Shown: positions 32,507-58,257 of the stretch, in pieces
Numbering within the stretch: position 1 is the first letter of the stretch
Layout of the letters: the number at the start of each line of letters is the position of its first letter
Assembly (NCBI GenBank): GCA_043810925.1
Contig: JBDRNT010000036.1
Span: 22,002 to 86,001 of the forward strand
Direction: 5' to 3'
From: Candidatus Eiseniibacteriota bacterium
GTDB taxonomy: Bacteria; Arandabacterota; Arandabacteria; Arandabacterales; Arandabacteraceae
Length of the DNA stretch: 64,000 bases
Position numbers and translations under genes: made by a program
Notes under the pieces: model-generated
What the model was told of the DNA's origin: nothing
Databases searched by the model: none
Seen by the model: the letters and a program-made list of their open reading frames with translations, nothing else

Positions 32507-32581
32507 TGGTAGCGCCACGGGGAATCGAACCCCGGTCTGATGGCTGAGAACCACCTATCCTAACCCCTAGACGATGGCGCC
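32507..32581 (-). tRNA. tRNA-Glu(CUC)
   Basis: GGCGCCA/TGGCGCT acceptor stem, anticodon arm GGTGG-TTCTCAG-CCATC, GGTTCGATTCC T-arm, encoded CCA. Confidence 0.95.
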
Positions 32582-51080: not shown

Positions 51081-53615
51081 ATGCAAACCAGGATGGCACA
51101 CATCACGGCAGTCATCCTCCTCATACCGGCCGTCCTACTTGAACCCACAATGTCTGACTCCCTTTCGGCTGACACAACCTACAATTTCTATGTGGGCAAT
51201 CTCCATTCACATACCTCCTATTCAGATGGAGTCGGGACTCCGTCCCAGGCCTTCGAGTATGCCAGGGACAGCGCGCAGGTGCATTTCCTGGCAGTCACCG
51301 ACCATGACGGTGGTCTTACAGACTCCGAATACGTTGACACCCGTCTTCAGGCCGACGTGTATACGGAGAATCATGTTTTCGTGGGTATAGCCGGGCAGGA
51401 ATGGACCGAAGGTCGCTGGACCCACTGCACCATTCTTGACGCCGACCATATCTTCACCGCACCCCGGCACCAGTATGACTCTCTTTATAGCGAGATCGCA
51501 ATCAGCGGTTGCACGGCAGCCTTCAACCACCCGCATCCCGACTGTTTTGACGATTACGCATACTCATCGGTGGGAGATCAGGGCATCAATGCCGTTGAGG
51601 TGAGAAATGATCTCGAACACGCCTTGTACATCGCGATACTCAACAAGGGATGGCACGTGGGGGCCGATGGATCGCAGGACAACCACCAGGCCAACTGGGG
51701 CGAGCGCCCTCATTGGACGGTCGCACTTGCATGCAGTCTTACAAGGGTAGATATCCTCAACGCGGCGAGGAAACACCGGACCTATTCCACATGGGACAGG
51801 AGTCTACAACTTGTATTCCAGGCAGAGAACCACTGGATGGGTGAGTCATTCAGCCACGTCGACAACATAAGATTCTCAATAAGCGTGCGTGATTCTGATG
51901 CGGGAGATCACACGGAACTTGTCGAACTCTACCAGAACGGCGATCGGGTGGACTGGATCAGTGTCGATTCTGAATCATGCACATGGTGTCCCGTGATCAC
52001 TCCTCCTGACGGCGAGAACAGCTACTTCGTCAAACTCACACAACAGGACGGCGATCGTGCCTGGTCGAGCCCGATCTGGATCGACTGCACTACCGACCTC
52101 CCTCCCACTCCCATACTCGCCTTCCCGCTGGATGACGAAACACTGGCGACACTCACTCCCACCTTGCTCTGGCACGCTTCAGAGGACACCGACACGTATA
52201 CCCTCCAGTATTCGACCTCCGACTCTCTGCCCACCGGTTCGTCGACCGTGACCGTGACGGATCTCACCGACACTTCCTACACCATGCCCCACTATCTGGG
52301 AGACCAGGAGACTTACTTTTGGAGGGTGGTTTCAATCAACAACTATGGCAGCAGCATGTGCTCCGGAGTGGGCAGATTCCTGATAGATGTCGGTATGTTC
52401 TCCGGGGATTCCGAAACGTGCTTAACCATCGATCCTGCTGATGACGCGTGTCCCTCGCTTGCCCAGACATACGCTGATACCTGGCTTGTCTGGTCCTCTA
52501 TGAGAGATGGAAATCCTGAACTCTACTACAAGACTTCATCTGATGATGGAGAGAGCTGGAGCAGTGCTCTGCGGCTTACAAATGCCGCCGGGGACGATCT
52601 AAGTCCCGCGATAGCCGAAGGGCCTAATGGAAACACCCGGGTAGCCTGGCATTCAGAGCGGAGTGGCGACTCTGAGATTTACTCAAAGACGTACAATGGT
52701 CTGTGGTGGTCTGAAGAGATCAATCTGACTCAGAATCCAGGTGAGGACCTTGATCCATCGCTCGCCTGGACTTCCGATAGTCTCACGTGGCTGGTGTGGA
52801 GTTCAGACAGAGAGGATACGGACTTCGAGATCTACTATATGATACGCGATGGAGGTTCCTGGTCCACCGAAACTCGACTGACAGACAACTGCTCCCAGGA
52901 CTGTGACCCCGAGATCATGCAGGCCGAAAGCGGAGATCTCTGGCTGGTGTGGTCCACAGACAGCGACGGGAACTTCGAGATCTACTACAAGACTCTTGAC
53001 GGAGACTCATGGTCGGATGATATGAGACTGACAGACTCCCCTGAAGATGAGCGATATCCGACAATCACCCGGACGTCGGATGGTCGTATCTGGGTTGCCT
53101 ACGAGAAGGCTCCAAATGTATGCTACATGATCCGCTCTGACGGCATCTGGTCCGACGAGGCCGTGCTCCATAGCGATCAGTCCGCCAATGAGCGGCCGTC
53201 GGTTGCCCAGGTGTCTGACGGAGGGATGTGGATCGCTTTCCATTCAGACCGGGACGGAGATGAGGATATATACGCGCAGCGGTCAAGCTGTGGAGTCACA
53301 GGCGGAGTCGATCCGTTTGACAGCAATAACGCTTCCGATCCAGCCCCGTCTCTCAGAAGCTACCCGAATCCCTTCAGCCTGAGAACACGCATCGAATTCG
53401 CCTTGAGAAGCGATTGCTTCGCCGAGTTGGTGATCGTAGACGTACTCGGCCAGGAGGTGAGATCGCTTGTGAGAGGGATGAAGCAGCAAGGGCACCACAC
53501 CGTTTACTGGGACGGCAGGGCCGAGAGCGGTCACTATCTTCCGAGCGGAGTCTATTTCTACTCGCTCCGCTACGGCGAGTCCTCCACGAGCCGTAAACTG
53601 GTCATCCTCAGGTGA
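51081..53615 (+). CDS. Secreted PHP-type (CehA/McbA-like) metallohydrolase with BNR-like repeats and FlgD-Ig tail
   Basis: GNLHSHTSYSDG, AVTDH, NHP, QDNH; WxSxRDG.EIYY repeats; YPNPF...SGVY. Confidence 0.78.
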   Translation: MQTRMAHITAVILLIPAVLLEPTMSDSLSADTTYNFYVGNLHSHTSYSDGVGTPSQAFEYARDSAQVHFLAVTDHDGGLTDSEYVDTRLQADVYTENHVFVGIAGQEWTEGRWTHCTILDADHIFTAPRHQYDSLYSEIAISGCTAAFNHPHPDCFDDYAYSSVGDQGINAVEVRNDLEHALYIAILNKGWHVGADGSQDNHQANWGERPHWTVALACSLTRVDILNAARKHRTYSTWDRSLQLVFQAENHWMGESFSHVDNIRFSISVRDSDAGDHTELVELYQNGDRVDWISVDSESCTWCPVITPPDGENSYFVKLTQQDGDRAWSSPIWIDCTTDLPPTPILAFPLDDETLATLTPTLLWHASEDTDTYTLQYSTSDSLPTGSSTVTVTDLTDTSYTMPHYLGDQETYFWRVVSINNYGSSMCSGVGRFLIDVGMFSGDSETCLTIDPADDACPSLAQTYADTWLVWSSMRDGNPELYYKTSSDDGESWSSALRLTNAAGDDLSPAIAEGPNGNTRVAWHSERSGDSEIYSKTYNGLWWSEEINLTQNPGEDLDPSLAWTSDSLTWLVWSSDREDTDFEIYYMIRDGGSWSTETRLTDNCSQDCDPEIMQAESGDLWLVWSTDSDGNFEIYYKTLDGDSWSDDMRLTDSPEDERYPTITRTSDGRIWVAYEKAPNVCYMIRSDGIWSDEAVLHSDQSANERPSVAQVSDGGMWIAFHSDRDGDEDIYAQRSSCGVTGGVDPFDSNNASDPAPSLRSYPNPFSLRTRIEFALRSDCFAELVIVDVLGQEVRSLVRGMKQQGHHTVYWDGRAESGHYLPSGVYFYSLRYGESSTSRKLVILR

Positions 53616-55596
53616 GTGCCCAGGTAAGGGCACGTTCTACTAGTCGGCTGAAAGGTGCCGACCGGGGTAAAATGCTTGTCAGCCCCGTAGCGTGGGGCCG
53701 GGTGGAAGGTGGTAACGCTTTCCATCTAAGCGGCCCGACAAAGCCTCTTTAAGGGGGTGACGCGAACCGGCAGGTTGTAACGCGTGTGAACCTAGAAGTA
53801 GCCTCGTAAAGACCAGATTGAGGAGGGCGACCCGGTATCTGAGCGGGGAAGCCAATACCTTGGGAAGATGGGACAGGCAGACGCCCGAGGCTCCTCCGGG
53901 GTATCAGGGGCGACATGCCGGGAAAGTGAACGTGTCAACTGGGGAGGCCCTTCCGGGCCTCTGCTTTGTATGCAGAGAGTAGACTTCTGGTATAAGGCAG
54001 TAGCCGAAAGCCTGAAGAGTCCGGTAGGGAGTCGGACGGAGTCATAGTACCGTAGATGCCGGAGACAACATAACTCCGGAGTAGGGAAGGGCTCCTGCTG
54101 TGGGTGTTTTCCGAAGAAGGTCGGGAGAGACGCATTGCGAGAGCTAGTAAGCGTCGGGAGAAAGATTCAGGACCTTCAGAGGAGGCTATGGGCCAAAGCC
54201 AAGGCCGAGCCTGAGTTCCGTTTCTATGCACTCTATGACAAGGTGTATCGCCAAGACATCCTTGAGGAGGCCTGGTGCCGAATACGCGAGAATGGCGGGT
54301 CACCCGGTGTGGATGGTGAGAGCATTGAAGCCGTAGAGAAGCGAGGCGTAGAGGGGTTTCTCCGTGAGCTTGGCGAGGAGCTCCGAGGCGGGACTTACAG
54401 GCCGCGAGCGGTGAAGCGGACGTACATCCCTAAGCCGGACGGGCACAAGCGCCCATTGGGGATACCCTGCATACGAGATCGCGTGGTACAGCAAGCCTTA
54501 CTGATAGTGATAGAGCCTATCTTTGAGGCGGATTTCCGGGATGCGAGTTTGGGGGTATCGACCAGGACGCAGTGCTCAACAGGCAGCGGGGGAGGTGGTG
54601 AAGTACCTGAACTGGGGGTTGACCAAGGTCTGTGACGTAGACATCAGGGCCTATTTCGACTCAATCCCGCACGGGAAGTTAATGGGAATGGTAGCCCGGA
54701 GAGTAGTAGACCGAAAGGTCCTTGGGCTAATCAAGGTGTGGTTGGAGTGTGCGGTAGAGGAAGATGGGCGCAGGTGGAAGCCGAGCAGAGGGACACCCCA
54801 GGGAGGAGTGATCTCACCCCTGTTGGCGAACATCTATCTACACACTGTAGATGCGACATGGGAGCGGCGGGGCTATACGAAGCGGTCAGGGCCTAACGTG
54901 CAGATGGTGCGCTATGCAGATGATCTTGTGCTATTGACGGACAAGGACGCATGTTGGGCGATGGATCGGCTTCGCGAGATGCTGGAGGAGTTAGAGTTGG
55001 AGCTAAGTGAGGAGAAGAGCCGGGTGGTGAATGCTGAGAAGGAGATATTCGACTTCTTGGGTTTCACCTTCAGGCGGGTGTGGAATAGGGAGCGAACCAA
55101 GAAGGTGACACTTTACCATCCGTCGAAGAGATCGCAGAAGCGACTTCGGGAACGGATACGTGGAGTGATGCACCCTACGAATCCAGTGACGGTAGCGGAG
55201 CAGATTGATCGCACGAATCGTATACTGCGCGGTTGGGTCAGCTACTTCAGTGTCAGCAATGCCTCATGTGTATTCCACGACGTGAGGTGGTATGTAGAGA
55301 CGAGGTTACGCCGGGTGTTACAGAGGCAACAGCACAGGTATGGACGAGGTTGGAAACGCTACGGCTACGCCTACCTGTATGCCGAGTTAGGTCTCTGGTC
55401 CGATTACCGAGTGCGTTGGCAGTGGACATGACCCTGAATTCCCACAGGAGAGCCGTATGAGGGAAAACCTCACGTACGGTTCGATGGGGGGGGAAGTTGG
55501 AAACCGGGTATGGTAGCCGGGATTGAGGCCTTGCCCGAAAGGGACAAGGGAAAGCCACCCGGAACCTGAAGCCACGGCGCCAGTCTCCTACTCTAT
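53614..55596 (+). mobile_element. Group II intron (IIB-like, EBS1 plus EBS2)
   Basis: Domain V GAGCCGTATGAGGGAAAACCTCACGTACGGTTC at 55450-55482; domain VI ending CTACTCTAT; EBS1 ATCTGAG 53837-53843 pairs with CTCAGGT; EBS2 GACCAG 53811-53816 pairs with CTGGTC. Confidence 0.88.
54135..55431 (+). pseudogene. ltrA: Group II intron reverse transcriptase/maturase with one extra base near 54548-54555
   Basis: RPLGIP..RDRVVQ in one frame; GYRPGRS, GTPQGGVISPLLANIYL, RYADD, FDFLGF and thumb domain in the next; no endonuclease domain. Confidence 0.85.
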
Positions 55597-55718
55597 AAGG
55601 ACAGCCTGGTGTTATTGACAGCCGATCGCCTCAAATGCTATCTTGACCACCGCTTTCTCTAGGCGGAGACTGGAGAAGTCGCGTCGGGCAAGGCGTGCTT
55701 GAGGAGAATCCACCGCAC

Positions 55719-58214
55719 ATGGGCAATACATCAAGCCGGGCCGAAACCAGCGGGGCACATATCTATCTAGGTATGTTCCTCATCGCATTTGCTACACTTG
55801 TGTTTGAGATTGTGCTCACACGGATACTGAGTGTCGTCACCTGGTATCACCTTGCCTTTTTTGCGGTCTCGACGGCGATGCTCGGGATGACGGCCGGGGC
55901 CGTAACCGTGTATCTCCGGCAGGAGTGGTTCAGCCGGGAGCGCCTGGACGATAGCACGGCCAAGGCCTGCTTGGGCTTCTCACTTGCGATCCCCTTCAGC
56001 CTCATCGTACTCTGTCTGACCCCCATGCACATCGAGGGATCTATAATGGGGCTCTATGCCATACTGCTTGTCGCATTCGTCTGTATGCTGCCCTTCTATT
56101 TTTCGGGGATCGCGATAACCGCAGTGCTTACCAGGTATAGATTACCCATAGGGAAGTTGTATGCCGCTGACCTGGCTGGCGCTTCACTCGGTTGCCTGTT
56201 CGTTCTGGGCGCGCTTGGGATTCTTGACGCCCCCGGCGTTGTCATTGCGGGGGGCTTGATAGGTGTTCTGGCGGCTTTGGGGTTCGGCTGGATGGGCTCG
56301 TCCCGAAGGACTCGTGGTTTGTCCGTGTGTATCCTTACAGTCCTCACGTTTCTTGTTGTCCTTGGAGCTGTTACTCCTTACGGAATGCGGCTTGCTGTGG
56401 TCAAAGGCAGAGTGCAGGATTTCAACAACATACTAATAGAGGAATGGAACTCGTTTTCACGGGTTGTTGTCCGGGCGCGCTCAGAAGGCCGCCCCCGAAT
56501 CCTTGGGGGAAGTCCCAGTGCTCCCGAAGACCTGAAGCTACCTATGTATAGGATGAGCATGGATGGAGCTGCCGGCACGATACTGGGGCGATTCGCGTCG
56601 CTGGAAGATATAGACTACCTTCGTTATGATATTGCCAACGTCGCTTATCACCTCCGTCCGGGGGGCAGCGCCTATATAATAGGTGTCGGTGCGGGAAAGG
56701 ACATACAGAGCGCGATACTGTTCGGCCAAGAGAGGATTGTCGGCGTTGAGATCAATCCGATCTTCATAGGACTTCTTAAGGGCCGGTTCAGGGAGTTCGC
56801 GGGCATAGCCGATCGGAATGAGGTCGATCTGGTCGTTGACGAGGCTAGGAGTCACCTTTCGCGGAGTGAAGATAGTTACTCCGTTATACAGATGTCAATG
56901 ACAGATACTTGGGCAGCAACGGGTGCGGGCGCCTTCTCCCTTTCCGAGAACGCCCTTTACACAGTTGAGGCCTGGAAGATCTGTGTCGATCATCTTACGG
57001 ACGACGGCATCTTCACGGTAGCGAGATGGTATAATCCGAGGGACCTTGGTGAGGCCGGCCGGATCGTTAGCCTTGCAGTCGGTACACTTCTCGAGTCGGG
57101 TGTCACCAAGCCGTCGGATCATATTGCCATGGTCACCGGTCGCCGGATCGCGACGCTGCTCATGAGCAAAAGGCCATTCGAGGACACTGATATCGATGCC
57201 CTTGAACGAAGTTGCTCTGATATGGGATTCCAGCTGGTGATACATCCCCGCCGTGATCCCACCAACCTCGTCTTGAAGAGCATAGTCACGGCGGCTTCCA
57301 TGCCTGAACTGGAGAGAGCGATCAGCGAATGGCCGCTTAACTACATGCCTCCTACCGACGACAGCCCGTATTTCTTCAACATGTTGAGGCTCAAACACGT
57401 GTTTGCCTCCATCTGGTTATCAACCGAAGATATGCCTTTCATAGATCCGTCGCGGACCCTGGTGTTGGACGCGGGTGCGTTGAGAGGGAATCTCATTGCG
57501 TCACGCACCCTTTCGAGGCTCATCCTGGTCCTGATCTTGCTGAGTGTTGTGACAATCATTGTCCCGCTTTCCCTGGGCACACAAGGTGGGAGAAGTGTGG
57601 TGGGAGGGAGGCAGGTTCTCTGGTCCGGGGCAGCCTACTTCTGTCTTATTGGTGCGGGATTCATGTTCGTCGAGATTGCGCTGATCCAGAGACTGTCGGT
57701 TTTCCTTGGTCATCCTATATATGCTCTCGCTATCCTATTGTTCACCATAATTGCCAGCGCGGGGGCAGGAAGTATGCTCAGCGAACGCCTGCCGCTCACT
57801 CGCCGGCCCTGGGTCTTTGTCTATCCCGTCATGATAGGACTTGCTGTAACTGCTGTCAGATTCATCCTGCCTGCTATGGCATCACATATGGTATCATCCC
57901 CCATGGCATCCAGAATCCCGGCGACGGTGGCGCTTCTTATTCCGCTGGGAGTCCTTATGGGCTTCGCTTTTCCCACGGGTATGCGGCTGGTGAGAACGGC
58001 GAAGGCAAGCCAGACGCCGTGGTACTGGGCACTCAATGGGGTCTTCAGCGTACTGTCGTCTGCGATCGCCGTGTTCGTTTCGATCTACTTCGGTATCTCA
58101 ACGAGCCTGATGATCGGGATGGTCTGCTATCTTGCACTGCTCCTCTGCATTCCCGGAATGCTCACTGCGTCTCAGCAACAGGGTACGTCCACAAGTGGGG
58201 GCGGTTCTCTATAG
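55719..58214 (+). CDS. Multi-TM membrane protein with spermidine synthase-like SAM-binding domain
   Basis: LYAADLAGASLG, IIGVGAGKD, VEINP, DEARS, ENALYTVEA, TDDSPYF. Confidence 0.75.
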   Translation: MGNTSSRAETSGAHIYLGMFLIAFATLVFEIVLTRILSVVTWYHLAFFAVSTAMLGMTAGAVTVYLRQEWFSRERLDDSTAKACLGFSLAIPFSLIVLCLTPMHIEGSIMGLYAILLVAFVCMLPFYFSGIAITAVLTRYRLPIGKLYAADLAGASLGCLFVLGALGILDAPGVVIAGGLIGVLAALGFGWMGSSRRTRGLSVCILTVLTFLVVLGAVTPYGMRLAVVKGRVQDFNNILIEEWNSFSRVVVRARSEGRPRILGGSPSAPEDLKLPMYRMSMDGAAGTILGRFASLEDIDYLRYDIANVAYHLRPGGSAYIIGVGAGKDIQSAILFGQERIVGVEINPIFIGLLKGRFREFAGIADRNEVDLVVDEARSHLSRSEDSYSVIQMSMTDTWAATGAGAFSLSENALYTVEAWKICVDHLTDDGIFTVARWYNPRDLGEAGRIVSLAVGTLLESGVTKPSDHIAMVTGRRIATLLMSKRPFEDTDIDALERSCSDMGFQLVIHPRRDPTNLVLKSIVTAASMPELERAISEWPLNYMPPTDDSPYFFNMLRLKHVFASIWLSTEDMPFIDPSRTLVLDAGALRGNLIASRTLSRLILVLILLSVVTIIVPLSLGTQGGRSVVGGRQVLWSGAAYFCLIGAGFMFVEIALIQRLSVFLGHPIYALAILLFTIIASAGAGSMLSERLPLTRRPWVFVYPVMIGLAVTAVRFILPAMASHMVSSPMASRIPATVALLIPLGVLMGFAFPTGMRLVRTAKASQTPWYWALNGVFSVLSSAIAVFVSIYFGISTSLMIGMVCYLALLLCIPGMLTASQQQGTSTSGGGSL

Positions 58215-58257
58215 CTTGCTGCAAACAGAGCAACGACATTGTTCTTCTGAGATAGAC

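Follow-up and report, generated by a model that had tools for sequence, protein, structure and literature searches.

How can a mobile element lodge in the last codon of a gene and leave the encoded protein unchanged? The question is raised by a group II intron in DNA of a Candidatus Eiseniibacteriota bacterium (GenBank assembly GCA_043810925.1, contig JBDRNT010000036.1, positions 22,002 to 86,001 of the forward strand), a stretch of 64,000 nucleotides that we call the window and number from its first letter. The intron lies inside the stop codon of a gene whose product ends in a secretion tail, and it begins with GAGTG where the group II consensus is GUGYG. A sequence-only reading of the window had proposed a harmless-insertion strategy, in which the odd second nucleotide supplies the stop. 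Each string on which that reading relied (GAGTG, the exon-binding sites EBS1 and EBS2, the intron-binding sites IBS1 and IBS2, and the terminal CTCTAT at 55596) is found by direct reading where it had been placed. We consider it probable that the element belongs to a family of mobile, endonuclease-lacking group II introns that home into the stop codons of genes with type IX secretion system (T9SS) type A tails.

The intron and its boundaries

The window from 53614 to 55596 (+ strand) is a group II intron of 1983 nt, GAGTG...CTCTAT, that carries a reverse transcriptase (RT)/maturase gene. Its domain I core (53652-53911, +) matches the full length of the Rfam model RF02005 (group-II-D1D4-6; model positions 1-225, 72.7 bits against a cut-off of 49, E = 2.2e-18), a model that begins at intron nucleotide 39, 38 nt past the 5' end. 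Domains V and VI match RF00029 at 55448-55596 on the + strand (52.1 bits against a cut-off of 40). Within this match, domain V (55450-55482, +) is conserved in five copies of the intron, and domain VI (55486-55593, +) enters the Rfam alignment with a large insertion. The latter domain is extended and branched in an RNAalifold consensus of five copies (-51.5 kcal/mol), is about 108 nt long in all five, and contains a predicted bulged branch-point adenosine, A55590, 7 nt from the 3' splice site. In the window it opens with a run of eight G (55486-55493), where the other copies read GAGGGG. From the group II consensus the intron deviates at position 2 only; the AY at its 3' end is kept, as CTAT or CTAC.

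The host gene (51081-53615, + strand, in the list of open reading frames) encodes 844 aa ending in SRKLVILR, followed by a TGA at 53613-53615 that consists of exon base T53613 and intron bases G53614 and A53615. The noncanonical 5' end of the intron (53614-53618, +) thus provides two of the three letters of the stop that ends the host reading frame. The 3' exon starts AAGGAC, and its first two bases, AA at 55597-55598 (+), would complete a TAA once the intron was spliced out. The last 100 aa of the host protein match TIGR04183 (Por_Secre_tail, T9SS type A sorting) over residues 17-98 with 33.5 bits against a cut-off of 23; in Pfam, the protein matches FlgD_ig (36.8 bits), and Por_Secre_tail PF18962 falls below its cut-off (20.5 versus 27).

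The boundaries follow from two empty sites. We refer to the source genome of the window as G000, to a congeneric genome as G001, and to individual loci or contigs with family copies or relatives by L-numbers; a centred dot marks a junction. The intron-free orthologue of the window's host gene in G001 (C10, 83% identical) encodes LVLLR followed by TAA and reads CTCAGGT·AACG (in longer form, AAACTAGTGCTCCTCAGGT before the junction and AACGTTACG after it). A second intron copy, on contig C171 of G000, follows a host tail KIVLLK with the junction TTGAAGT·GAGTG, and the intron-free orthologue of this host (G001:C127, 86% identical) reads TTGAAAT·AAGAACG. The boundaries of the intron are T·GAGTG...CTCTAY·A, exact to the base.

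A 5' splice site placed elsewhere would give the intron a canonical GU start and would dispense with any stop-codon logic, and the window does contain suitable letters, GTGAG at 53612 and GTGCC at 53616. Both positions are nevertheless excluded because only T·GAGTG...CTCTAY·A reproduces both of the G001 empty sites; AGGT·AACG and AAAT·AAGA fit no other boundary. Moreover, in a further copy on contig C90 of G000, AGAT precedes GAGCG, hence there is no GT two bases upstream, and in four copies the pairing of EBS1 with the exon stops exactly at the T. The orthologue of the host of this C90 copy was sought in five genomes and matched in none (0/5), so that no empty site is available for it. We therefore regard a splice site at either canonical position as extremely improbable, and the earlier placement of the site after T53613 holds, as does the earlier estimate of a long domain VI (about 100 nt, against the approximately 108 nt found in 5/5 copies compared).

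Exon pairing and the family of copies

Copies of the intron were gathered from G000 itself, from its relatives, from assembled genome contigs (five stretches) and from metagenomes (three copies), and their 5' ends were located with an anchor that placed no constraint on the exon or on the intron's first five letters. In the metagenomes, the pattern searched was AAGGG, 12 free letters and AGTCGG (the family spacing is 11), which returned 115 stretches, three of them family copies and 112 unrelated. The motif is present in 4 of the 18 genomes of the phylum that were searched. Twelve 5' junctions, drawn from six or more genomes or metagenomes, are readable, in G000 (three), G011, G016, G017, G102 (three) and three metagenome contigs, and all 12 have the same form: a protein tail of K or R, four hydrophobic residues and again K or R, then T·GAG(T/C)G with an in-frame TGA. 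The intron starts with GAG(T/C)G in 13/13 family copies. Insertion is thus site-specific, between the first and second bases of the stop codon, and the GA start is conserved. At the other end, the 3' exon begins A(A/G) in seven of the eight copies with a 3' junction, and the predicted ligated stop is TAA or TAG. Two family contigs have irregular sequences that may be assembly artefacts: G102:C205 (L186) contains an internal tandem duplication of approximately 50 nt in domain I, at about intron nt 60-150 (CCTGTCAGCCCCGTAGCGAGGGATCGGGCGTCGGCGGTAACGCGTGC twice), and G016:C138 ends in a palindrome inside the intron.

The stop-codon pattern is specific to this GAGYG family, as the 3' exons of other introns in the same genome differ. 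Seven domain V/VI matches of other intron families in G000 are followed by exons that start cat, cca, tcg, gcg, aga, cag and aag. These seven lie on contigs C132, C13, C109, C181, C79, C88 and C177, six of these matches being no farther than about 150 nt from the end of their contig; those on C13, C109 and C181 have identical domain V/VI sequences and three different 3' flanks.

Recognition of the exon is guided by EBS1. In the window, EBS1 (ATCTGAG, 53837-53843, +) occupies a hairpin loop that is left unpaired in the Rfam alignment, and it pairs with IBS1 (CTCAGGT, 53607-53613, +), which comprises the last two sense codons and the first base of the stop. The duplex AUCUGAG/CUCAGGU has 7 bp, one of them G-U. 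In G011, the corresponding sequences are AUCGGAU and AUCCGAU (7 bp), in L087 AUUUCAG and CUGAAGU (7 bp, one G-U) and in G102:C205 ACUUCA and UGAAGU (6 bp). The EBS1-IBS1 pairing covaries in these four copies in the same register, ending at the T of the stop. The chance of a 7-bp pairing in a fixed register is about (6/16)^7 = 0.001 per copy, and such a pairing is seen in three copies that differ in sequence. In an alignment of six copies, the EBS1 loop is variable, and a U-A on its 5' side is shared by all of them. The base immediately 5' of EBS1 (U53836 in the window) is U in 6/6 loops; a pair between this U and A+1, the letter with which 7/8 of the 3' exons start, is possible and suggests a δ-δ'-like contact. 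A candidate EBS2 (GACCAG, 53811-53816, +), in an internal loop unpaired in the Rfam consensus, is complementary over 6 bp to a candidate IBS2 (CTGGTC, 53598-53603, +).

The target is abundant, as had been claimed for the tail of the window's host. In G000, the tail motif closes 55 stop-to-stop frames that are 200 codons or longer. Of these, 15 stop with TAA, 26 with TAG and 14 with TGA, and the intron is present in 3 of the 14 tails that end with TGA; all 3707 frames of this length in G000, a background that includes spurious frames, end with TAA (713), TAG (1144) or TGA (1850). Only the window's own site among the 55 tails pairs both 7/7 with the window's EBS1 and 6/6 with its EBS2. When six variants of EBS1 are compared with the 55 tails, the number of tails that pair 7/7 ranges from 0 to 14, depending on the variant.

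The RT of the family has no endonuclease domain. The intact protein of L018 (444 aa) consists of RVT_1 and GIIM only, and an intact relative matches TIGR04416 with 397 bits against a cut-off of 300; intact RTs of 444 aa or similar length occur in L018, G102:C205 and G016:C213. Ranked against solved structures in the PDB, the RT has its best match in the GsI-IIC RT (131.5 bits), and IIC-type RTs are more similar to it than LtrA or TeI4h are. The RT/maturase gene in the window (54135-55431, +), which lies in domain IV, is divided by a +1 frameshift into two frames, 54135-54635 and 54523-55431, the second of which contains RVT_1 and GIIM. Aligned with the L018 protein, its two halves are collinear, the first with residues 12-151 at 69% identity and the second with residues 150-440 at 73% identity. 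Protein clusters with 67-100% identity to the L018 RT number at least 120 and come mostly from contigs about 2 kb long, which makes the family a common one in environmental data. Family copies that lack an open reading frame are 753-759 nt long, a domain VI of about 110 nt included.

Some copies appear to have decayed at their targets. At three related tail genes, the 12-25 letters after TGA are similar to the start of the intron, with 17/24 identities in G000:C49 (3078-3101), 14/24 in G000:C89 (5562-5585; 11/12 over the first 12) and 17/24 in G001:C53 (L175, about 1450-1475, - strand); none of the other 50 tails exceeds 12/24. These remnants were probably left by an intron that has since decayed, its GA remaining as the stop of the gene. 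Because the three genes are related, the scars may go back to a single event. Further 5' fragments of the intron occur in L042, L020 and C171.

Homing, the second nucleotide and the alternatives

Together, these observations suggest a mode of homing in which the intron RNA would recognise DNA through its 7-nt EBS1, paired with the last two sense codons and the T of the stop, with the U beside EBS1 pairing with the A that follows. Reverse splicing would then take place between the first and second bases of a TAA or TAG codon and, as the intron starts with GA instead of GU, would leave T plus GA, a stop at the same codon. A gene interrupted in this way, reading T+GA, would yield the same host protein, sorting tail included, whether or not the intron is spliced out; splicing itself would restore TAA or TAG. 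The conserved tail would offer dozens of similar targets per genome, and variants of EBS1 would match different tails. Endonuclease-lacking group II introns prime cDNA synthesis from replication-fork DNA, and this presumably applies to the present family as well.

From this it is a further step to the origin of the unusual 5' end. The outgroup nearest to the family with the same Rfam domain I type (G098:C9, RT 45% identical) starts with GTGCG, has a short domain VI and does not lie at a stop; G069:C148 also starts with GTGCG. The start is readable in these two of three outgroups, the third being L192 (G061, RT 49% identical). We see about even chances that the lineage changed the near-invariant U2 of the catalytic core to A2 to carry two-thirds of a stop codon, so that insertions are silent without splicing, that the codons of the T9SS tail together with the stop serve as a multi-copy homing site in dozens of genes, and that after decay of the intron its first letters stay behind as a TGA stop. 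A2 may be maintained because it keeps the C terminus of the host protein exact. The harmless-insertion proposal of the sequence-only reading gains from these comparisons, as GTGCG in two outgroups, TGA-keeping remnants at three genes and one copy whose 3' exon would restore no stop all fit it. Its account of the inserted allele, with TGA at 53613-53615 in the window and in frame at 12/12 family junctions, and its expectation that other copies would start GAGTG after a stop-codon T, borne out as GAG(T/C)G in 13/13 starts and 12/12 junctions, are confirmed.

Several observations weigh against the reading of these introns as stop-codon homing elements, or narrow it. The copy on G000:C90 has EBS1 AUCGGAA and IBS1 CUAAGAU, which pair at 4/7 positions only. 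The 6-bp EBS2-IBS2 match of the window is reached by 164 of 2000 loop shuffles, and covariation of this pairing, looked for in four other copies, was not above chance in any of them. The EBS2 pairing is treated as unproven for these two reasons; of the two exon matches described at the outset, that of EBS1 stands, with 7 bp and covariation in four copies, and that of EBS2 is confined to the window. The claim that ligated exons give a stop has likewise been kept in part, with TAA or TAG predicted in 7/8 copies. The exception, G016:C213 (L190), has a 3' exon that starts CA (CAAAGG), and splicing there would restore no stop. The RT of this copy is intact, and its 5' exon lies off the contig. Its 3' junction sits 19 nt upstream of the ATG of a gene that starts MKSYTCDVLIIGGG. 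In addition, the junctions come from a few related uncultured genomes, and the insertions in G016 and G017 may share one ancestor. RNA splicing at the predicted sites is a step that we infer from retrohoming, a process that depends on an intron excised at precisely these ends.

To these points has to be added the condition of the window copy. A +1 frameshift in a run of five G (54551-54555) disrupts the RT, and the copy is therefore probably no longer autonomous; at this run and at the G8 run (55486-55493), an assembly error is possible. The 3' exon of the window is, further, not the original partner of the 5' exon. In G001, the sequence that follows the stop of the host orthologue corresponds to the flank behind another intron 3' end in G000, on C129 (C129:1-190, ...CTCTAC·AACGACAC), and the window from 58258 onward corresponds to the sequence that follows the host of the C171 copy in G001. 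The 2.66 kb between the intron and this point (55597-58257) were not found in G001, and the first kilobase (55597-56600) gave no match there. The 5' exon in the window is thus joined to the 3' flank of another site, through recombination between copies, which in G000 differ by 5-6%, or through an assembly chimera; the window copy may be either.

The frameshift and the exchanged flanks, together with the position of most family copies at contig ends, are what could make the window copy a dead relic or an assembly artefact, a frameshifted intron joined to a foreign 3' flank at which the ligated-exon reading would be meaningless. We give this explanation real weight, although we doubt it. The 5' junction is cognate, with the EBS1 and EBS2 of the window matching (7/7 and 6/6) the window exon only, the family-level pattern is independent of the window copy, and the stop logic holds with either flank because A(A/G) opens every 3' flank in G000. 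A different objection accepts the site specificity as real and takes A2 for a neutral or structurally compensated quirk of one lineage, the recreated TGA being a side effect without adaptive value. The copies form a single lineage, in which GA was inherited once, and for this reason the constancy of GA alone proves no selection for a stop. Moreover, a canonical GU frame closes soon too: with U at position 2, the window's frame would reach an in-frame TAA at 53625-53627, four codons on. Even so, GA has been kept across copies whose RTs diverge by about 26-31%, among which the fourth letter of the motif is T in some and C in others. GTGCG, moreover, is the start of each of the two outgroups whose 5' end is clear, and three genes still have a TGA within a short remnant of the intron's 5' end. 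We consider this second explanation unlikely, and prefer that of a family of introns for which the stop codon of the tail is the homing site.

Some features of the flanks and of the underlying data may be recorded here. Directly after the intron in the window lies an open reading frame for an 839-aa multi-pass membrane protein (55695-58214), part of which bears a weak resemblance to spermidine synthases (E = 0.002-0.003, well short of the cut-offs). The C171 copy (C171:1-330) breaks off after about 180 nt at a repeat that G000 contains at six places (among them C169, C34, C12, C159 and C79). Within C171 (1-145), a reading frame in this repeat ends in KPFVWTKSADEIFETIYAMCQDTSESQQ followed by a stop, an ending that may resemble the C terminus of an IS630-type transposase. 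Of the sequencing runs listed as containing the locus, none is an RNA run, and the best-matching one contains 0.16 of the words sampled from the locus. Contigs of four sequencing runs cover the window with fragments of related introns only (53561-55648) and have no bearing on splicing or on the flanks; in these four runs, the 5' exon from 53300 to 53560 is uncovered, stray depth begins at 55823 (two runs), and no contig bridges an exon-intron junction. Elsewhere in the window, a tRNA gene lies at 32510-32581 on the - strand (Rfam RF00005, 53.2 bits).

Relation to known introns and significance

Insertion of a group II intron into a stop codon, with recreation of the stop, is already known from groEL. 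As described for a specialised IIB1 lineage that inserts at start or stop codons, introns such as Avi.groEL of Azotobacter vinelandii and EcKTE56.groEL of Escherichia coli insert between the second and third bases of UAA, so that their first G makes UAG, and they carry an insertion of 300-700 nt in domain I (PMC12584367). The GAGYG family resembles these introns, as so described, in inserting inside a stop codon, in rebuilding the stop with the first letter or letters of the intron, in making the protein independent of splicing and in site-specific retrohoming. It differs from them in position, since it sits between the first and second bases of the stop and needs both G1 and A2, whereas the groEL introns need only the normal G1; insertion after the first base of the stop therefore requires the nonconsensus A2. 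The target differs as well, a tail common to a gene family (55 candidate open reading frames in G000) taking the place of one housekeeping gene, and the hosts are uncultured Eisenbacteria-like bacteria in contrast to the Proteobacteria described for the groEL introns. The GAGYG family has an extended domain VI, and because it has no domain I insertion, no endonuclease domain in its RT and a gene family as its target, it is not a member of the IIB1 start- or stop-codon lineage. What is new here is the position of insertion, the 5' end, the gene-family target and the lineage.

Group IIC introns are described as lacking EBS2 and part of EBS1, as inserting after stem-loops and as targeting terminators or attC sites (PMC4424553, PMC3753933). 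By this description, the GAGYG family is like them in having an RT without an endonuclease domain and in using a target that is repeated in each genome at the ends of genes, where insertions do little harm. It is unlike them in pairing 6-7 nt with the exon, in lying within the stop codon and in having a larger domain I (RF02005); given the 7-bp exon pairing and the insertion inside coding stops, we do not place it in IIC. The IIE and IIF ribozymes, which are described as 450-700 nt long without an open reading frame, with an essential EBS1 and a doubtful role for EBS2 (PMC3753933), are similar in that the ribozyme of the present family is also small (753-759 nt) and in this division of roles between EBS1 and EBS2. 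Those descriptions, for their part, mention no GAGYG start and no stop-codon homing. A 2015 review names three target specificities of bacterial group II introns, namely homing sites, terminators and attC sites. Our literature search found no description of a group II intron start of the GAGUG type and none of group II introns that target T9SS tails.

For the host genomes, the family leaves conversions of TAA or TAG stops to TGA, together with short scars in host genes, and for annotators a TGA stop followed by GAGYGCCCAG in genes of T9SS substrates marks an intron insertion. The deviation from GUGYG appears to be tied to coding and not to catalysis, and would be a natural experiment on how far the 5' end of this ribozyme can be altered. 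For the introns themselves, a target that is a gene family defined by a conserved protein tail offers a way to multiply in a genome and leave its genes unharmed.

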